Positions 12,330 through 16,829 are shown, numbered from the stretch's first letter. The stretch is 31,362 bases of DNA from Desulfatirhabdium butyrativorans (GCA_020718785.1 DYRK01000004.1:1-31362), one strand, 5' to 3'. The notes: generated from the sequence alone by a model not told the origin. Numbers and translations: made by a program.

Positions 12330-12388
12330 AAGTGAGAAGTGAGAAGTGAGAATTGAATATTCACTTCTCACTTTTCAATTCTCACTTT
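12330..12388. repeat. Heptamer repeats in inverted blocks (AAGTGAG x3 / CTCACTT-type)
   Basis: aagtgagaagtgagaagtgagaattga...tcacttctcacttttcaattctcacttt. The block overlaps the stop of the upstream reductase gene. Confidence 0.75.
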
Positions 12389-14442
12389 CCTCCCCTGGCT
12401 TCAAGGGCAAGCTGTCTCACTTTGGCGATATCCTCATCCGTAAACACACCGTTTACACCGCTTATAGCAGCAAGTTTCATGCCGTGTCTGAGACCCATTT
12501 TATAAATTTCTCTCACCTTTTGCCATTCAATATCCCGACCGATGGTAAAATTCTCAAACCGCCCCTCCAAAGCCAGCACAATGGTTTCGGCAAGGCAGGC
12601 ATAAACGACTCTCGGCGGCAGTCCGATACTCTTCATCTCCGGGTTTCCGGGCAGTTCGATTTCTCCGGATTCTATTACCAGCACATCAGGGCGTTTTCTC
12701 ACATCCTCGGGCGAGAGATCCAGGGGTCTGGCAACATCGGTGATGACACACCCGGGCTTGACTTTTGTTATGTCTAAAACGGTTTTGCCCGCGCCGGAAG
12801 TTGCAGTTACAATCACATCCATATCGGGAAGAAATCTGTCGGCACGGGTTGAAAGATAGAGTTTGACTTCCGGTGTTTCCGTGAGAATAGATTCTTTTAA
12901 TGCGAGCAGTTTTGCCATATTTCTGCCTGCCATGTAAACTTCCTCAAAAGCATACGCGAGCAATCGACAACATACTGAGCCGATAGCGCCGGTTGCGCCC
13001 ATGACCATGGCTTTTGCCTTGATTTTTTTCCCGGGTTCGGTTTGGATCAGCCCTATACGGCGAACAGCATCTGCCGCAGCCCAGAGCGCGCCGGACGCGC
13101 TGTAGCTGTTGCCGGTAGTAATAGGAATATCTGCCAGCTTTGCTACCGTAACTCCGGAATCTCCTACTACTTTGGTGAAAGCTCCGAGTCCCATGATCTG
13201 CGCGCCCATGCGTTTTGCCATTTTAGCAGCCTGCAACAGACGCTTGTAGGTAAACTCAGGCTCATGAGACATCATCTGTTTCGGGGTTCCGCCCACGGTA
13301 ATCAGCCAGCCTTCTGCTTCTACACCCGTAGGAGACTTGATGCCCGTGACTTTGGAGTAAACCCAGGGCGGAGCGTAAGCCACAACCTTTTCTACCGCGT
13401 CCATAAACGCGGGGGGTGTGACTTTGGACAGATATTTCACGGTCTTGTCTTTTTTCAGATATTCTTTTGAAAGCGGATGAATCACAAAAGCAAAACGGTT
13501 CACCCGTTTGGAATCTCCGGAAGGAAAGACGACTCGTGGATCCATGCGCTGTTCGCTGATGATTTCCAGAAAATCGTCATTCGTGATTTCCTCGGGAGGT
13601 TTTTCCAAAGCCGCCACAATCAAGGCTTCCAGCACATTGACTCCCACCACCTGCCGGAGTATTTTCGGGGTGGAGTCAATCACCACATTCACGCCTCTTT
13701 CTTTCAGAAAACGAATCTGATCATCATAAACCGTTGAACTGATGACAATTTTTCCGCCCAATTCTTCGATAGTGCATTTTTCCACATACTTGTAGAAGTC
13801 ATAATACGGCACTACGATGATGTTTGCCTTCTGCATGGCTTTGCGGATGATGTATTCATTCCATTTCCGTAAAGGAATGACCGAAGAAGAAAGCTGTTTT
13901 CCGGGGAGCCATTTCAGTACCTCATGAGCCTGATTGGCGTATAAATCCAATTCGTTCAACGAATTGAGAAATTTGGAGATGCCGTTTTCCAGAACCGGAT
14001 CTGCAAAAGTCAGATTTTCCGTGTATTCGGACATGACTTTGGACATGGAGTAATTGGTCATGCCTGAAAGAAATAACACTTTGGCATTATTGAAGTAGTT
14101 ATTTCCGAATTTGAATTGAATGTGACGAAAAGACCATTCATGTCCGACTTTCCGCAGATTTTCTCCTGTCATTACAGGGGTACGAAGCCGGGAAGTCAGT
14201 TTTTTCAATTTCTCGGAAAGGTTTTGTCTCAGGTGTTCAGGTCCGATATCATAAGGAAATCTGATATGACCCAGACCCATGGCATCTGCTTCTTTATCCC
14301 AAAGGGACAAAAGATCGGCAGCTTTTTCCAGACTCCCGTCGGTTCCGATCCGCCGGATATAGAAATCCTGCCCCAGAAATTCCGTCTCAAACTCATAATC
14401 TCTCCCGCTCGGTCCCAGACTGATGCTTACTACTTGTTTCAC
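12382..14442 (-). CDS. Two-domain NAD(P)-dependent reductase with a C-terminal acyl-ACP-reductase-like (COG5322-type) domain
   Basis: The C-terminal half has RFAFVIHPL, LGAFTKVV, TTGNSY, Rossmann GATGAIGS and YACLAE, parallel to the cyanobacterial AAR motifs LGGFTSII, TTGNTH, GATGDIGS and FACFAE (catalytic Cys). The N-terminal ~310 aa (VVSISLG...) is a separate domain of unknown function. Confidence 0.7.
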   Translation of the reverse strand: MKQVVSISLGPSGRDYEFETEFLGQDFYIRRIGTDGSLEKAADLLSLWDKEADAMGLGHIRFPYDIGPEHLRQNLSEKLKKLTSRLRTPVMTGENLRKVGHEWSFRHIQFKFGNNYFNNAKVLFLSGMTNYSMSKVMSEYTENLTFADPVLENGISKFLNSLNELDLYANQAHEVLKWLPGKQLSSSVIPLRKWNEYIIRKAMQKANIIVVPYYDFYKYVEKCTIEELGGKIVISSTVYDDQIRFLKERGVNVVIDSTPKILRQVVGVNVLEALIVAALEKPPEEITNDDFLEIISEQRMDPRVVFPSGDSKRVNRFAFVIHPLSKEYLKKDKTVKYLSKVTPPAFMDAVEKVVAYAPPWVYSKVTGIKSPTGVEAEGWLITVGGTPKQMMSHEPEFTYKRLLQAAKMAKRMGAQIMGLGAFTKVVGDSGVTVAKLADIPITTGNSYSASGALWAAADAVRRIGLIQTEPGKKIKAKAMVMGATGAIGSVCCRLLAYAFEEVYMAGRNMAKLLALKESILTETPEVKLYLSTRADRFLPDMDVIVTATSGAGKTVLDITKVKPGCVITDVARPLDLSPEDVRKRPDVLVIESGEIELPGNPEMKSIGLPPRVVYACLAETIVLALEGRFENFTIGRDIEWQKVREIYKMGLRHGMKLAAISGVNGVFTDEDIAKVRQLALEARGGK

Positions 14443-14468
14443 GATATCCCCCCTATATAATTGATTAT

Positions 14469-14548
14469 TGAGAAGTGAGAAGTGAAAAATAAATCACTTT
14501 CCATTTCTCACTTCTCACTCTTCACTTCTCACTCTTCATTTCTCACTT
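14469..14548. repeat. Heptamer repeats in inverted blocks (AAGTGAG / TTCTCAC)
   Basis: gagaagtgagaagtga...tttctcacttctcactcttcacttctcactcttcatttctcacttc. The block supplies the ferredoxin C-terminus and stop. Confidence 0.75.
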
Positions 14549-14778
14549 CCTATCGCGTTTGCCGGACAGGCATTCATTGCCTCGGCACAGCGTTCCTCTT
14601 CCTCTGCACTTTCCGGCTGTTTACAGACATAGTTGCAGTCTGTTTCCAGTTCCTCATCCGAATCGGATCTGAAATTATCCGGAGCGATCTCGCTGCAAAG
14701 CATACAGCCGATACAGGCTTCGCTGACGTAGTATTTCCCATAAACATTGTTTTTGAATTTTCGTCTGTTATTACACAT
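14536..14778 (-). CDS. Single-cluster ferredoxin
   Basis: CIGCMLC...CPANAI (CxxCxxC...CP) preceded by the GKYYV motif. Confidence 0.88.
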   Translation of the reverse strand: MCNNRRKFKNNVYGKYYVSEACIGCMLCSEIAPDNFRSDSDEELETDCNYVCKQPESAEEEERCAEAMNACPANAIGSEK

Positions 14779-14821
14779 AAAAAAATACCGCAGGGACGGC
14801 AGCCGAATTATTTCTTTTTTT

Positions 14822-14985
14822 TCGTTCCCAAGCCGGGCTTCAATGCCTTTAAGTTAAAGAACTATCCGGATAAAGTCCGGCACAGCAGAGCGGGTTTGAA
14901 ACCCGCTCTGCTGTATATGCCAAAATTTCATTTTAGCACTCCTCACCTTTAACTTAATGGCAGTGAGCCGGGGCTTGGGAACGAG
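14822..14985. repeat. Composite repeat with TCGTTCCCAAGC/GCTTGGGAACGA ends and an internal GCGGGTTTGAAACCCGC hairpin (14883-14913)
   Basis: The ends match the 5860-5953 family and the internal hairpin matches 5778-5800. Confidence 0.75.
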
Positions 14986-14996
14986 AAATGAACCTC

Positions 14997-16829
14997 TCAT
15001 GACATGACGAGATGTTCCAGTCCTTTTTCCCTGAGAAATTTGGGATACAACGCGTACGCGGGCTTGAGAATCGGCAACAGTTTGATAGTCTTGGGTACAT
15101 TGCCTTTGGCAACGACCTGCCGGCGAGTCAAAGCAGAGACCAGATTGGCTTTTCCATGCCAGAATTTATGAGCAAAGTCCGCATTCATCGTCATGGTGAC
15201 TTCCGGCTTACCGTCAAACTCACCCTTCTGAATCAGCAGTTCCTCTCCGGTAGCGTCAATGGTAATCACGCCGTCAGGGTTTTTGTAAACAAACTGGACA
15301 CAGAGATTGCTCTTTTTCAATCCCGGGCCTATATCCGGATCACTCTTCAATTTCTCGTAGAAATTCACCAGCACATCATAAAGCATGTCAGTGTCTTTAA
15401 AGACATTCTTCATTTCCTTCGCGCCGAATTTGGCTGCCGAGGGACGGAGGTCTTCTTCTGTAACCGGAAGCGGTTCCGCCTTTGCCTCATACAGCTTTCC
15501 GATGATGGCAATGACATCATCTTTACGGGGTTCCACAGGATTATACAGCATGGAACCGTCTTCCATAGCGGTAGTTGCCAATTGTTCCAGTTTTGCCAGA
15601 TTGTCGTCAATCCCTGCTTCTTTCAGATTCAGGGGCAGTTTTGTGAGATAAGCCAACTGGCGGTTCAATGTCCGTATTTTTTCGATACCGGCGCCGGCTG
15701 CCTGCTTTCGGACCCATCCGTCAATAAATCCCAGATTGCCGATGACTTTTGCCACTGCTCCCCTTGCTTTGAAGGATTTCATATCAAACCATTCTTTGGT
15801 ATCGGAAGAGGAAAACAGGTTCTTAACTGCATTCAGACTGCATGATTTCAAAAGGCTTCGGCTTTCGTTGATGATTTCCGGAAAATCAATTCCCAGTGCG
15901 GCGGCAATGTCTGCAAACCGCTCGGTCTGGCTTTCCAGATTGTACTCCATGACTTCCGGCAGCACAATGGCATTTGCCACACCGTGAGGAATATGATACA
16001 CTCCGCCCAGCGCATGTGCAATAGCATGAGTCATTCCCACCATCGAATGGGAGAATGCAACGCCGGCAAGAAAACTTCCCACGAGCATACTTCCACGTGC
16101 CTGCAAATCTTCGGGATGCGCGCAGGCCTGCAAAATATTGCCGCTGATGAGCCGGATGGCATGAAGAGCCATGGCATCCGAAGCCGGTGACCATTCCTTA
16201 TCTGTGTAAGCCTCGATAGCATGAGTCATGGCATCCATACCCGTAGCAGCAGTCAGTTTGCCGGGCATTGATACGGTCACTTCAGGATCGAGAATTGCCA
16301 TCTGCGGGAGGAACTGGTCTTCTGCAAAAGGCAGCTTCACGTCATGGTCAGGGTCAGCGACCACTGCTACTTTGGTAACTTCCGAACCGGTTCCCGCGGT
16401 AGTAGGAATAAATATGGCGGGCAGCAGGGCATCGTTTTTATCCAACAGATACGCGCCCATGTGATCCGCCACTTTTCCGCCTTTGACTAAAAGGAGATTG
16501 GCGACTTTTGCCGTATCAATGACACTTCCGCCGCCGATGGCGATAATCATGTCGCACTGATGCGATCTCGCAAGTTCTGCACAGGATTCAACGGTTTTAA
16601 TGGTAGAATTGGGCGGAACATCGTCATACAGACAGACAATCTCAATATTCGTGTTTTCAAAACCTTTTTTCACCTTATCCGCGGGACCGGCTTTGACCAA
16701 TATCTTATCTGTCACCAGCACGGCTCTGCGCGGTCCGAACTGTCTGACCGCATTTCCGATATTGTTAAGAATGCCGATGCCGTAAATCACTTTTGTAGGG
16801 AGAGTAAATTCGAAATATTCGGGTAGCAT
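14997..16829 (-). CDS. Iron-containing alcohol dehydrogenase fused to a C-terminal SCP2 lipid-binding domain
   Basis: AIGGGSVIDTAK, IPTTAGTGSEVT, GMDAMTHAIEAY, HAIAHALGG and HGVANA Fe-ADH motifs. The C-terminal ~130 aa (VTMTMNADFAHKFWHGKANLVSALTRRQVVAKG) is SCP2-like. Confidence 0.88.
   Translation of the reverse strand: MLPEYFEFTLPTKVIYGIGILNNIGNAVRQFGPRRAVLVTDKILVKAGPADKVKKGFENTNIEIVCLYDDVPPNSTIKTVESCAELARSHQCDMIIAIGGGSVIDTAKVANLLLVKGGKVADHMGAYLLDKNDALLPAIFIPTTAGTGSEVTKVAVVADPDHDVKLPFAEDQFLPQMAILDPEVTVSMPGKLTAATGMDAMTHAIEAYTDKEWSPASDAMALHAIRLISGNILQACAHPEDLQARGSMLVGSFLAGVAFSHSMVGMTHAIAHALGGVYHIPHGVANAIVLPEVMEYNLESQTERFADIAAALGIDFPEIINESRSLLKSCSLNAVKNLFSSSDTKEWFDMKSFKARGAVAKVIGNLGFIDGWVRKQAAGAGIEKIRTLNRQLAYLTKLPLNLKEAGIDDNLAKLEQLATTAMEDGSMLYNPVEPRKDDVIAIIGKLYEAKAEPLPVTEEDLRPSAAKFGAKEMKNVFKDTDMLYDVLVNFYEKLKSDPDIGPGLKKSNLCVQFVYKNPDGVITIDATGEELLIQKGEFDGKPEVTMTMNADFAHKFWHGKANLVSALTRRQVVAKGNVPKTIKLLPILKPAYALYPKFLREKGLEHLVMS

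Follow-up and report, generated by a model that had tools for sequence, protein, structure and literature searches.

A candidate fatty-alcohol-forming gene cluster in Desulfatirhabdium butyrativorans and other Desulfobacterales, encoding an acyl-ACP-reductase-like fusion protein, a ferredoxin, and an SCP2-fused alcohol dehydrogenase

A 31,362-nt stretch of DNA from Desulfatirhabdium butyrativorans (GCA_020718785.1, DYRK01000004.1:1-31362; the whole stretch is referred to as the window) carries three co-oriented genes on the minus strand. They encode a protein resembling acyl-ACP reductase (AAR) with a long N-terminal addition, a small ferredoxin, and an iron-type alcohol dehydrogenase (Fe-ADH) fused to an SCP2 domain (ADH-SCP2). 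Based on sequence comparisons, the cluster is proposed to be the fatty-alcohol-forming branch of wax-ester storage in a sulfate-reducing anaerobe of the order Desulfobacterales, a reading given a probability of roughly 0.58. The evidence comprises protein architecture, motif conservation, fold, gene linkage, and co-occurrence with wax ester synthase/diacylglycerol acyltransferase (WS/DGAT); from homology and gene association we infer all of the catalytic steps, as well as substrate, flux direction, and the role of the ferredoxin. The three genes, which a first-pass annotation of the window had described as co-oriented, were all recovered as open reading frames (ORFs) at the following positions.

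12382 to 14442, minus strand: reductase (P0001), whole, 686 aa, GTG start
13498 to 14442, minus strand: reductase residues 1 to 315, putative degenerate N-terminal AAR-fold module (AlphaFold2 [AF2] model and structural search)
12382 to 13497, minus strand: reductase residues 316 to 686 and stop codon, AAR/PigE-N-type module (hidden Markov model [HMM], PDB, and Foldseek searches)
14536 to 14778, minus strand: ferredoxin (P0002), 80 aa, single [4Fe-4S] type (Fer4_13, conserved Cys)
14997 to 16829, minus strand: Fe-ADH with C-terminal SCP2 (P0003), 610 aa (Pfam matches and motifs)

Pfam searches with the reductase returned generic Rossmann families only. Residues 316 to 678 matched NF053554, which describes the PigE N-terminal region, with 174 bits (E value, 4.8e-51), below the equivalog cut-off of 850; the match covered only positions 1 to 356 of the 837 in the profile, and the protein lacks the class III aminotransferase domain. 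Residues 352 to 656 matched the AAR model TIGR04058 with 79 bits (E value, 3.9e-22), again below the equivalog cut-off (449.7). Compared with solved structures, the same region aligned to PigE 4ppm (E value, 4.8e-26) and to AAR 6jzq. The motif YACLAE occupies residues 614 to 619, and its Cys616 (codon 12595 to 12597) aligned with the catalytic Cys294 (FAC294FAE) of Synechococcus AAR 6jzq and was kept in all but one of the aligned orthologs of the window's clade. At residues 482 to 489, GATGAIGS aligned with the AAR nucleotide motif GATGDIGS (GxTGxIGS); across 31 homologs Gly482, Ala483, Gly485, and Gly488 were invariant, and positions 484, 486, 487, and 489 varied. The AAR-type motifs that the first-pass annotation had recognized, YACLAE among them, were thus borne out by alignment. 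An AlphaFold model of the whole reductase had a pLDDT of 84, and its C-terminal half has the AAR fold, with 6jzu and 6jzq as the top Foldseek matches (E value, 3e-20; TM score by target, 0.72 to 0.75). The C-terminal module is a candidate thioester reductase, for which Cys616 would be the candidate nucleophile.

The remaining residues of the reductase, 1 to 315, had no Pfam or NCBIfam match, and neither did the ten stand-alone or distant relatives that were scanned. Modelled alone with stand-alone relatives in the alignment, they formed a separate, confident domain (AF2 pLDDT, 91.3). An exhaustive structural search with this domain ranked AAR 6jzq_A first (Z, 13.6; 249 residues aligned; 10% identity) and the carmabin terminal amidation domain (TAD) 9e4s second (Z, 13.0), followed by shikimate dehydrogenases and periplasmic binding proteins at a Z of 9.5 or lower. 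Foldseek alone gave weak two-lobe alpha/beta matches (TM score, 0.3 to 0.5), and AAR came out on top only in the exhaustive search. No conserved Cys and no glycine-rich motif could be identified in the N-module alignment. We read these 315 residues, on the strength of the model, as a second, catalytically degenerate copy of the AAR fold. The N-terminal domain of ~310 aa noted at first pass is therefore present, but it appears to be a second AAR-fold module rather than a mere extra. Its role is probably in acyl-chain or carrier binding or in assembly, and it may also dock a partner. A PlsX/PTA-like module had been suspected from the presence of MaeB in the Foldseek list for the full-length protein; this was dropped because searches with the domain alone hit MaeB in its malic-enzyme part and put AAR at the top. 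HMMER searches of 1.8 billion representatives identified the N-module both in fusions and as stand-alone proteins of ~300 aa, some of which are named 'quinate 5-dehydrogenase'. The neighborhoods gave no hint of a lipid function, either for a stand-alone relative surrounded by housekeeping genes or for a distant full-length one beside a carbamoyltransferase gene.

Searches with the reductase family gave more than 4500 matches, and the window protein was 70 to 83% identical to proteins from many metagenome-assembled genomes of Desulfobacterales. The full-length fusion was present in 27 of 151 genomes of the order, and the full-length reductase in 7 of 401 genomes of the phylum. In many genomes a second reductase copy lies directly downstream, in which Gly replaces the catalytic Cys (YAGLAE) and the nucleotide motif is intact. 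These Gly-type copies formed one clade (100/99 support) and were found as tandem paralogs in loci L050 to L059 (e.g., L051:8035-10095, L053:9598-11667, and L057:10611-12680); the genome from which the window derives is without one. The Gly-type paralog may serve as a pseudo-enzyme subunit or reduce aldehydes. Sporadic variants with Ser or Ala also occur, and these are without the ferredoxin.

The ferredoxin matched Fer4_13 (PF13370) with 49 bits (E value, 1e-12), and the cysteines of its CxxCxxC...CP pattern (Cys22, Cys25, Cys28, and Cys71-Pro72) were invariant in 21 orthologs. In 23 of 26 genomes, its gene precedes that of the Cys-bearing reductase at a distance of 27 to 431 nt. The ferredoxin is a conserved partner of the Cys-bearing reductase, and the tightest. 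Prediction of a complex of the reductase, a 4Fe-4S cluster, and the ferredoxin returned scores of 0.62, 0.00, and 0.00, which speak neither for nor against binding. The acetyl-CoA/acetaldehyde couple lies at about −410 mV, and thioester reduction is uphill from NAD(P)H, so that a low-potential input or a redox switch is conceivable, as a matter of speculation. Our guess is that the ferredoxin supplies low-potential electrons for this uphill reduction or exerts redox control. We know of no fatty acyl reductase for which ferredoxin coupling has been described.

The third protein matched Fe-ADH (PF00465; 172.6 bits; E value, 6.7e-51) and ADH_Fe_C (PF25137; 189.5 bits; E value, 6.9e-56) above the gathering scores, and SCP2 (PF02036) was called at residues 496 to 588 with 29.6 bits against a cut-off of 21.3 (E value, 8.9e-07), in agreement with the fusion originally reported. 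SCP2 was also called in the ADH orthologs of two further loci, L074 and L075, described below. The protein contains the motif GGGS (at residue 99) and the motifs DAMTH (199), HALGG (272), and PHGV (281), the latter three being of the kind that provides metal ligands in this family and probably doing so here. These features make ADH-SCP2 a proposed fatty aldehyde reductase or fatty alcohol dehydrogenase. Full-length orthologs sharing 60 to 80% identity were present in about 22 of the 151 Desulfobacterales genomes. The reductase fusion is also found in 20 of these, and in 13 of the 20 the two genes lie within 6 kb of each other. Linkage of the genes in other genomes, the point on which the first-pass annotation had made its proposal depend, is therefore seen both here and in the ferredoxin-reductase adjacency.

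Co-occurrence was assessed in the same 151 Desulfobacterales genomes, and counts are given in place of statistics because related genomes are not independent. WS/DGAT was present in 25 genomes. The fusion and WS/DGAT occurred together in 23, the fusion only in 4, WS/DGAT only in 2, and neither in 122. One of the two genomes with WS/DGAT only carries a classical short-type synthase; the other (G407) has a reductase remnant beside WS/DGAT and ADH-SCP2. In each of the families f7, f8, and f142, both genes were present in one genome and absent from another. Of the 23 genomes with both, 11 have WS/DGAT no more than 6 kb from a reductase copy, and in seven loci WS/DGAT was directly upstream of the ferredoxin. 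The window's own genome (G000; 91.65% complete in 1209 contigs) encodes a WS/DGAT on another contig (C429:3-1709; L072), which scored 128.6 bits over the cut-off and has both WS/DGAT domains. The contig ends before a stop codon of this gene is reached; in relatives the ferredoxin and reductase genes come next.

Known reductases were also sought. None of the 25 WS/DGAT genomes yielded a FarA-type Sterile domain, and the window's genome likewise gave no match. Members of the HMGR/FcrA family were identified in four of the 25 (G438, G454, G479, and G520), as ORFs of 912 to 939 aa in three of these, and none was found in the window's genome. Eight fusion carriers lack a close full-length ADH-SCP2, taken as one of at least 42% identity, and the same four are among them; three have no full-length ADH-SCP2, and the copy in G479 is only 32% identical. 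The pattern hints at FcrA and ADH-SCP2 as substitutes for one another in reaching the alcohol. Aldehyde deformylating oxygenase (ADO; PF11266), reported as missing from the outset, was not found in the 91.65%-complete genome, which makes an alkane route unlikely.

To describe the genomic setting, ORFs of twenty 20-kb reductase neighborhoods were clustered. Recurrent neighbors were WS/DGAT, ADH-SCP2, a downstream 570-aa alpha/beta hydrolase, patatin-like lipases, PHB_acc_N/phasin-like proteins, an FFLEELY (DUF8198) protein, and an acyl-CoA thioesterase. The cultured bacterium Desulfamplus magnetovallimortis BW-1 (L074, on LT828558.1) has the complete set at one locus, with ADH-SCP2, patatin, DUF8198, and two PhaR-like genes on one arm and WS/DGAT, ferredoxin, reductase, paralog, alpha/beta hydrolase, and an ABC1 kinase on the divergent arm. 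A similar locus is present in the Olavius algarvensis Delta 1 symbiont (L075). In the window's genome, FFLEELY and patatin genes are located on another contig (C626:466-2152; L073) and a PhaR-like gene on C173. Contigs of metatranscriptome X20 span parts of the reductase and ADH of a relative at ~90 to 98% identity, which neither proves transcription nor shows co-transcription.

Taken as wax-ester synthesis, the pathway would run as follows. By homology, the C-terminal module would load a long-chain acyl group from acyl-ACP or acyl-CoA onto Cys616, and hydride from NAD(P)H bound at GATGAIGS would release the fatty aldehyde, as in AAR and the PigE N-terminal domain. ADH-SCP2 would then turn the aldehyde into fatty alcohol, with SCP2 presumably holding the hydrophobic substrate or product. 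WS/DGAT, as its co-occurrence suggests, would join the alcohol and acyl-CoA to a wax ester, which could be stored in inclusions with PhaR/phasin-like proteins and mobilized by patatin and alpha/beta hydrolases. The sequence from acyl thioester through aldehyde to fatty alcohol had been put forward in the first-pass annotation, and it gains comparative support from WS/DGAT and lipid-body-type genes that co-occur with the cluster and often adjoin it. A more specific version states that a ferredoxin-coupled acyl reductase of two AAR modules, often with a Cys-less paralog as a subunit, is the reductase so far missing from a pathway by which anaerobes would store wax esters and dispose of electrons, with the ferredoxin supplying or gating low-potential power; taken as a whole, this is tentative and would have to be called unlikely.

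Several observations weigh against wax-ester storage. The scores against the AAR and PigE models are so far under the equivalog cut-offs that a substrate is not transferable from those families. The reductase sequence has no flavin or Fe-S site at which single electrons could be accepted, and AAR chemistry needs no ferredoxin. In the window itself, the flanking genes are unrelated (a prepilin peptidase and a DUF1828 pair), and WS/DGAT does not adjoin the cluster. Four fusion carriers (G482, G503, G509, and G532) had no WS/DGAT match, and kinship among the genomes means that the co-occurrence counts overstate the support. The reductase survey took in Sterile, HMGR, and NAD_binding_4, so that reductases of the short-chain dehydrogenase/reductase (SDR) type, Acr1 and AcrB, could also be present. 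The PhaR/phasin-like neighbors could belong to polyhydroxyalkanoate rather than to wax. Finally, the AAR fold is also found in a putative terminal amidation domain (9e4u; bioRxiv 10.1101/2024.10.28.620694), and the fold therefore leaves the chemistry unfixed.

The likeliest rival, itself quite improbable, is that the genes are catabolic: ADH-SCP2 would oxidize long-chain alcohol, from stored wax esters or from uptake, and the reductase would run in reverse as a CoA- or ACP-acylating aldehyde dehydrogenase feeding beta-oxidation. Both reactions are reversible, and by established thermodynamics the NAD(P)+-dependent step from aldehyde to thioester is favored. Members of the order are generally known as degraders of long-chain compounds, and hydrolytic genes (patatin, alpha/beta hydrolase, and acyl-CoA thioesterase) are present at the conserved loci; however, the lipase genes are usually divergent, and the co-oriented WS/DGAT-ferredoxin-reductase string ties the reductase to the synthase. 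Moreover, beta-oxidation genes did not recur in the 20 neighborhoods, and the characterized AAR and PigE relatives work reductively.

Two other readings retain a small probability. The protein could be a reductase for another metabolite, similar to PigE or natural-product enzymes, or perform some other chemistry on an AAR fold, with the lipid genes as coincidental or regulatory neighbors. This is doubtful, although the PigE N-terminal region outscores AAR among the HMM matches, a distant full-length relative that is 32% identical in its N-terminal domain lies beside carbamoyltransferase genes, stand-alone N-modules occur in housekeeping contexts, and AAR-fold TAD domains may amidate (bioRxiv 10.1101/2024.10.28.620694). 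No polyketide synthase, nonribosomal peptide synthetase (NRPS), or aminotransferase gene neighbors the reductase in the Desulfobacterales loci examined, the 70 to 83% identity across many families is typical of core metabolism, and co-occurrence with WS/DGAT and ADH-SCP2 is tight. Least probable of all is that the alcohol serves as a precursor of alkylglycerol ether lipids, which are known in some sulfate reducers. The AGPS pathway builds ether lipids from fatty alcohol, and ether-lipid genes accompany the reductase in some carriers of FcrA (PMC11948995), but the phyletic partner here is WS/DGAT, and no glycerolipid, AGPS-like, or PlsC-like gene recurred in the 20 neighborhoods of 20 kb or in L074 and L075, a genome-wide search not having been made. 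The first-pass annotation had named ether lipid and wax as possible ends of the pathway; wax ester is now favored, and nothing in these neighborhoods spoke for ether lipid.

Among known systems, AAR (TIGR04058; 6jzq and 6jzu) shares with the C-terminal module its fold, the aligned Cys294, the GxTGxIGS motif, and the presumed fatty aldehyde product. It differs in that the window protein is only ~24% identical and twice as long, with the degenerate AAR-fold module in front: AAR is a single module of ~340 aa that works with ADO, whereas the protein described here has 686 aa, ADO was not found, the partners are ferredoxin, ADH-SCP2, and WS/DGAT, and the host is an anaerobe. In engineered hosts, aldehydes made by AAR are converted to alcohols by Fe-ADH-type reductases. 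For the AAR family, the double-module architecture, the Cys-to-Gly paralog, and the obligate ferredoxin neighbor are each new. The N-terminal domain of PigE/HapE from the biosynthesis of the prodigiosin precursor 2-methyl-3-n-amylpyrrole (MAP) (NF053554; 4ppm) is the best sequence match and shares the Cys and the AETIVLALE motif; it is a thioester reductase with an aldehyde product (PMC8341465). In contrast to PigE/HapE, the window protein has no aminotransferase domain and no pig-type neighbors, and the domain beside the reductase is a different one.

The wax-ester routes of Marinobacter and Acinetobacter, which use FarA, AcrB, Acr1, or FcrA with WS/DGAT, follow the same logic from acyl thioester to alcohol to WS/DGAT. 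Fusions to lipid carriers occur in both, namely SCP2 here, Lad or acyl carrier protein on FcrA, and SCP2 on some Bacteroidota WS/DGAT (PMC10351704). The cluster differs from these routes in its AAR fold, as opposed to SDR/Sterile or HMGR, in the use of two enzymes via a free aldehyde, in the ferredoxin partner, and in its strictly anaerobic hosts. The known wax-ester reductases, including the newly found FcrA, explain only part of the WS/DGAT carriers (PMC11948995, 2025). As for ADH-SCP2, residues 1 to 320 aligned to structurally solved group III Fe-ADHs (FucO, DhaT, methanol dehydrogenases, and YqhD-type enzymes) with E values of 1e-54 to 1e-74, and the NAD and metal motifs are shared. In contrast to these enzymes, of which solved members have ~385 aa, the window protein has 610 aa, an added SCP2, and a ~75-residue insertion inside the C-terminal ADH domain, such that ADH_Fe_C matches two stretches.

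Storage of wax esters and triacylglycerols (TAG) is textbook knowledge for aerobes such as Acinetobacter, Marinobacter, and the actinomycetes, and WS/DGAT genes of Deltaproteobacteria are abundant in marine sediments. Such genes were found in a 2023 metagenomic survey in which synteny was not analyzable, and accumulation of wax ester or TAG in Deltaproteobacteria was unreported as of that year (PMC10351704). Lipid granules that stain with Nile red have been observed in multicellular magnetotactic Desulfobacterales (bioRxiv 10.1101/2022.11.08.515611); neutral lipid stores are compatible with this staining, which is not specific. In literature on wax esters in Desulfobacterales, Olavius symbionts, and Desulfamplus, no description of the reductase, the ferredoxin, or the locus was found. 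If the proposal holds, the AAR-like fusion would fill the reductase gap for globally important sulfate reducers of sediments and for animal symbionts, and would represent a wax-ester reductase class of its own, the fifth and unrelated to the others. A further implication would be that storage lipids act as an electron sink under sulfate limitation, comparable to wax-ester fermentation in Euglena, and an anaerobic bacterial source would matter for the use of fatty alcohols and wax esters as biomarkers in anoxic sediments. D. magnetovallimortis is available as a cultured carrier.

Further observations concern genes of the conserved loci. An ABC1/UbiB-family kinase gene ends the lipid locus in both D. 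magnetovallimortis (L074:16522-18234) and the Olavius symbiont (L075:20176-21876); plant ABC1 kinases are linked to lipid droplets (plastoglobules). The FFLEELY-motif protein (NF047641; DUF8198) is regularly paired with a patatin-like lipase beside reductase loci (e.g., L050:18637-19293). Locus-type WS/DGAT proteins have 527 to 620 aa and carry a C-terminal extension of ~100 aa that is absent from the classical forms of 460 to 500 aa. In G407, a 2.5-Mb single-contig genome with 60% marker completeness, WS/DGAT and ADH-SCP2 are followed at locus L045 (G407:C1:2106464-2109649) by a 314-aa ORF that matches reductase residues 1 to 62 only and may be a decayed or split copy.

The only strong NAD_binding_4 match in the window's genome, on contig C506, was considered as a classical fatty acyl reductase and rejected, as it is an NRPS terminal reductase followed by an aminotransferase. 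This region (L071:76-9717) encodes an NRPS of more than 2050 aa with C-A-T modules, a separate NAD_binding_4 reductase ORF, and a class III aminotransferase, and in its gene content resembles a natural-product cluster that would form an aldehyde and convert it to an amine.

Within the window, the three genes are not tightly packed, with spacers of 218 nt between the ADH and ferredoxin genes and 93 nt between the ferredoxin and reductase genes; in relatives, the former ranges from about 20 to 300 nt. Downstream of the cluster lies the prepilin peptidase gene, and upstream are the DUF1828 pair, an M48 peptidase gene, and a gene for a GGDEF-EAL protein. Both spacers contain dispersed repeat elements and terminator-like hairpins, those in the ADH-ferredoxin spacer region being at 14880 to 14866 and 14801 to 14786. 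Two repeats were identified by reading the sequence and by BLASTN, the first resembling a miniature inverted-repeat transposable element (MITE).

14820 to 14990, no strand assigned: MITE-like dispersed repeat in the ADH-ferredoxin spacer
14470 to 14545, no strand assigned: GTGAGAA-rich palindromic repeat in the ferredoxin-reductase spacer

The GTGAGAA-rich palindrome had 93 BLASTN matches in the window's genome, and contig depth exceeded 1000 at 14468 to 14616 in three unrelated metagenomes; it is therefore regarded as a widespread element of the repetitive extragenic palindromic (REP)-like kind. The MITE-like element has inverted ends of ~36 nt (GTTCCCAAGCC...TTAAGTTAAAG) and internal perfect hairpins, and gave 64 BLASTN matches in the same genome. 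It takes up the ADH-ferredoxin spacer and may insulate the ADH gene from the ferredoxin-reductase pair or act as a transcription terminator between them.

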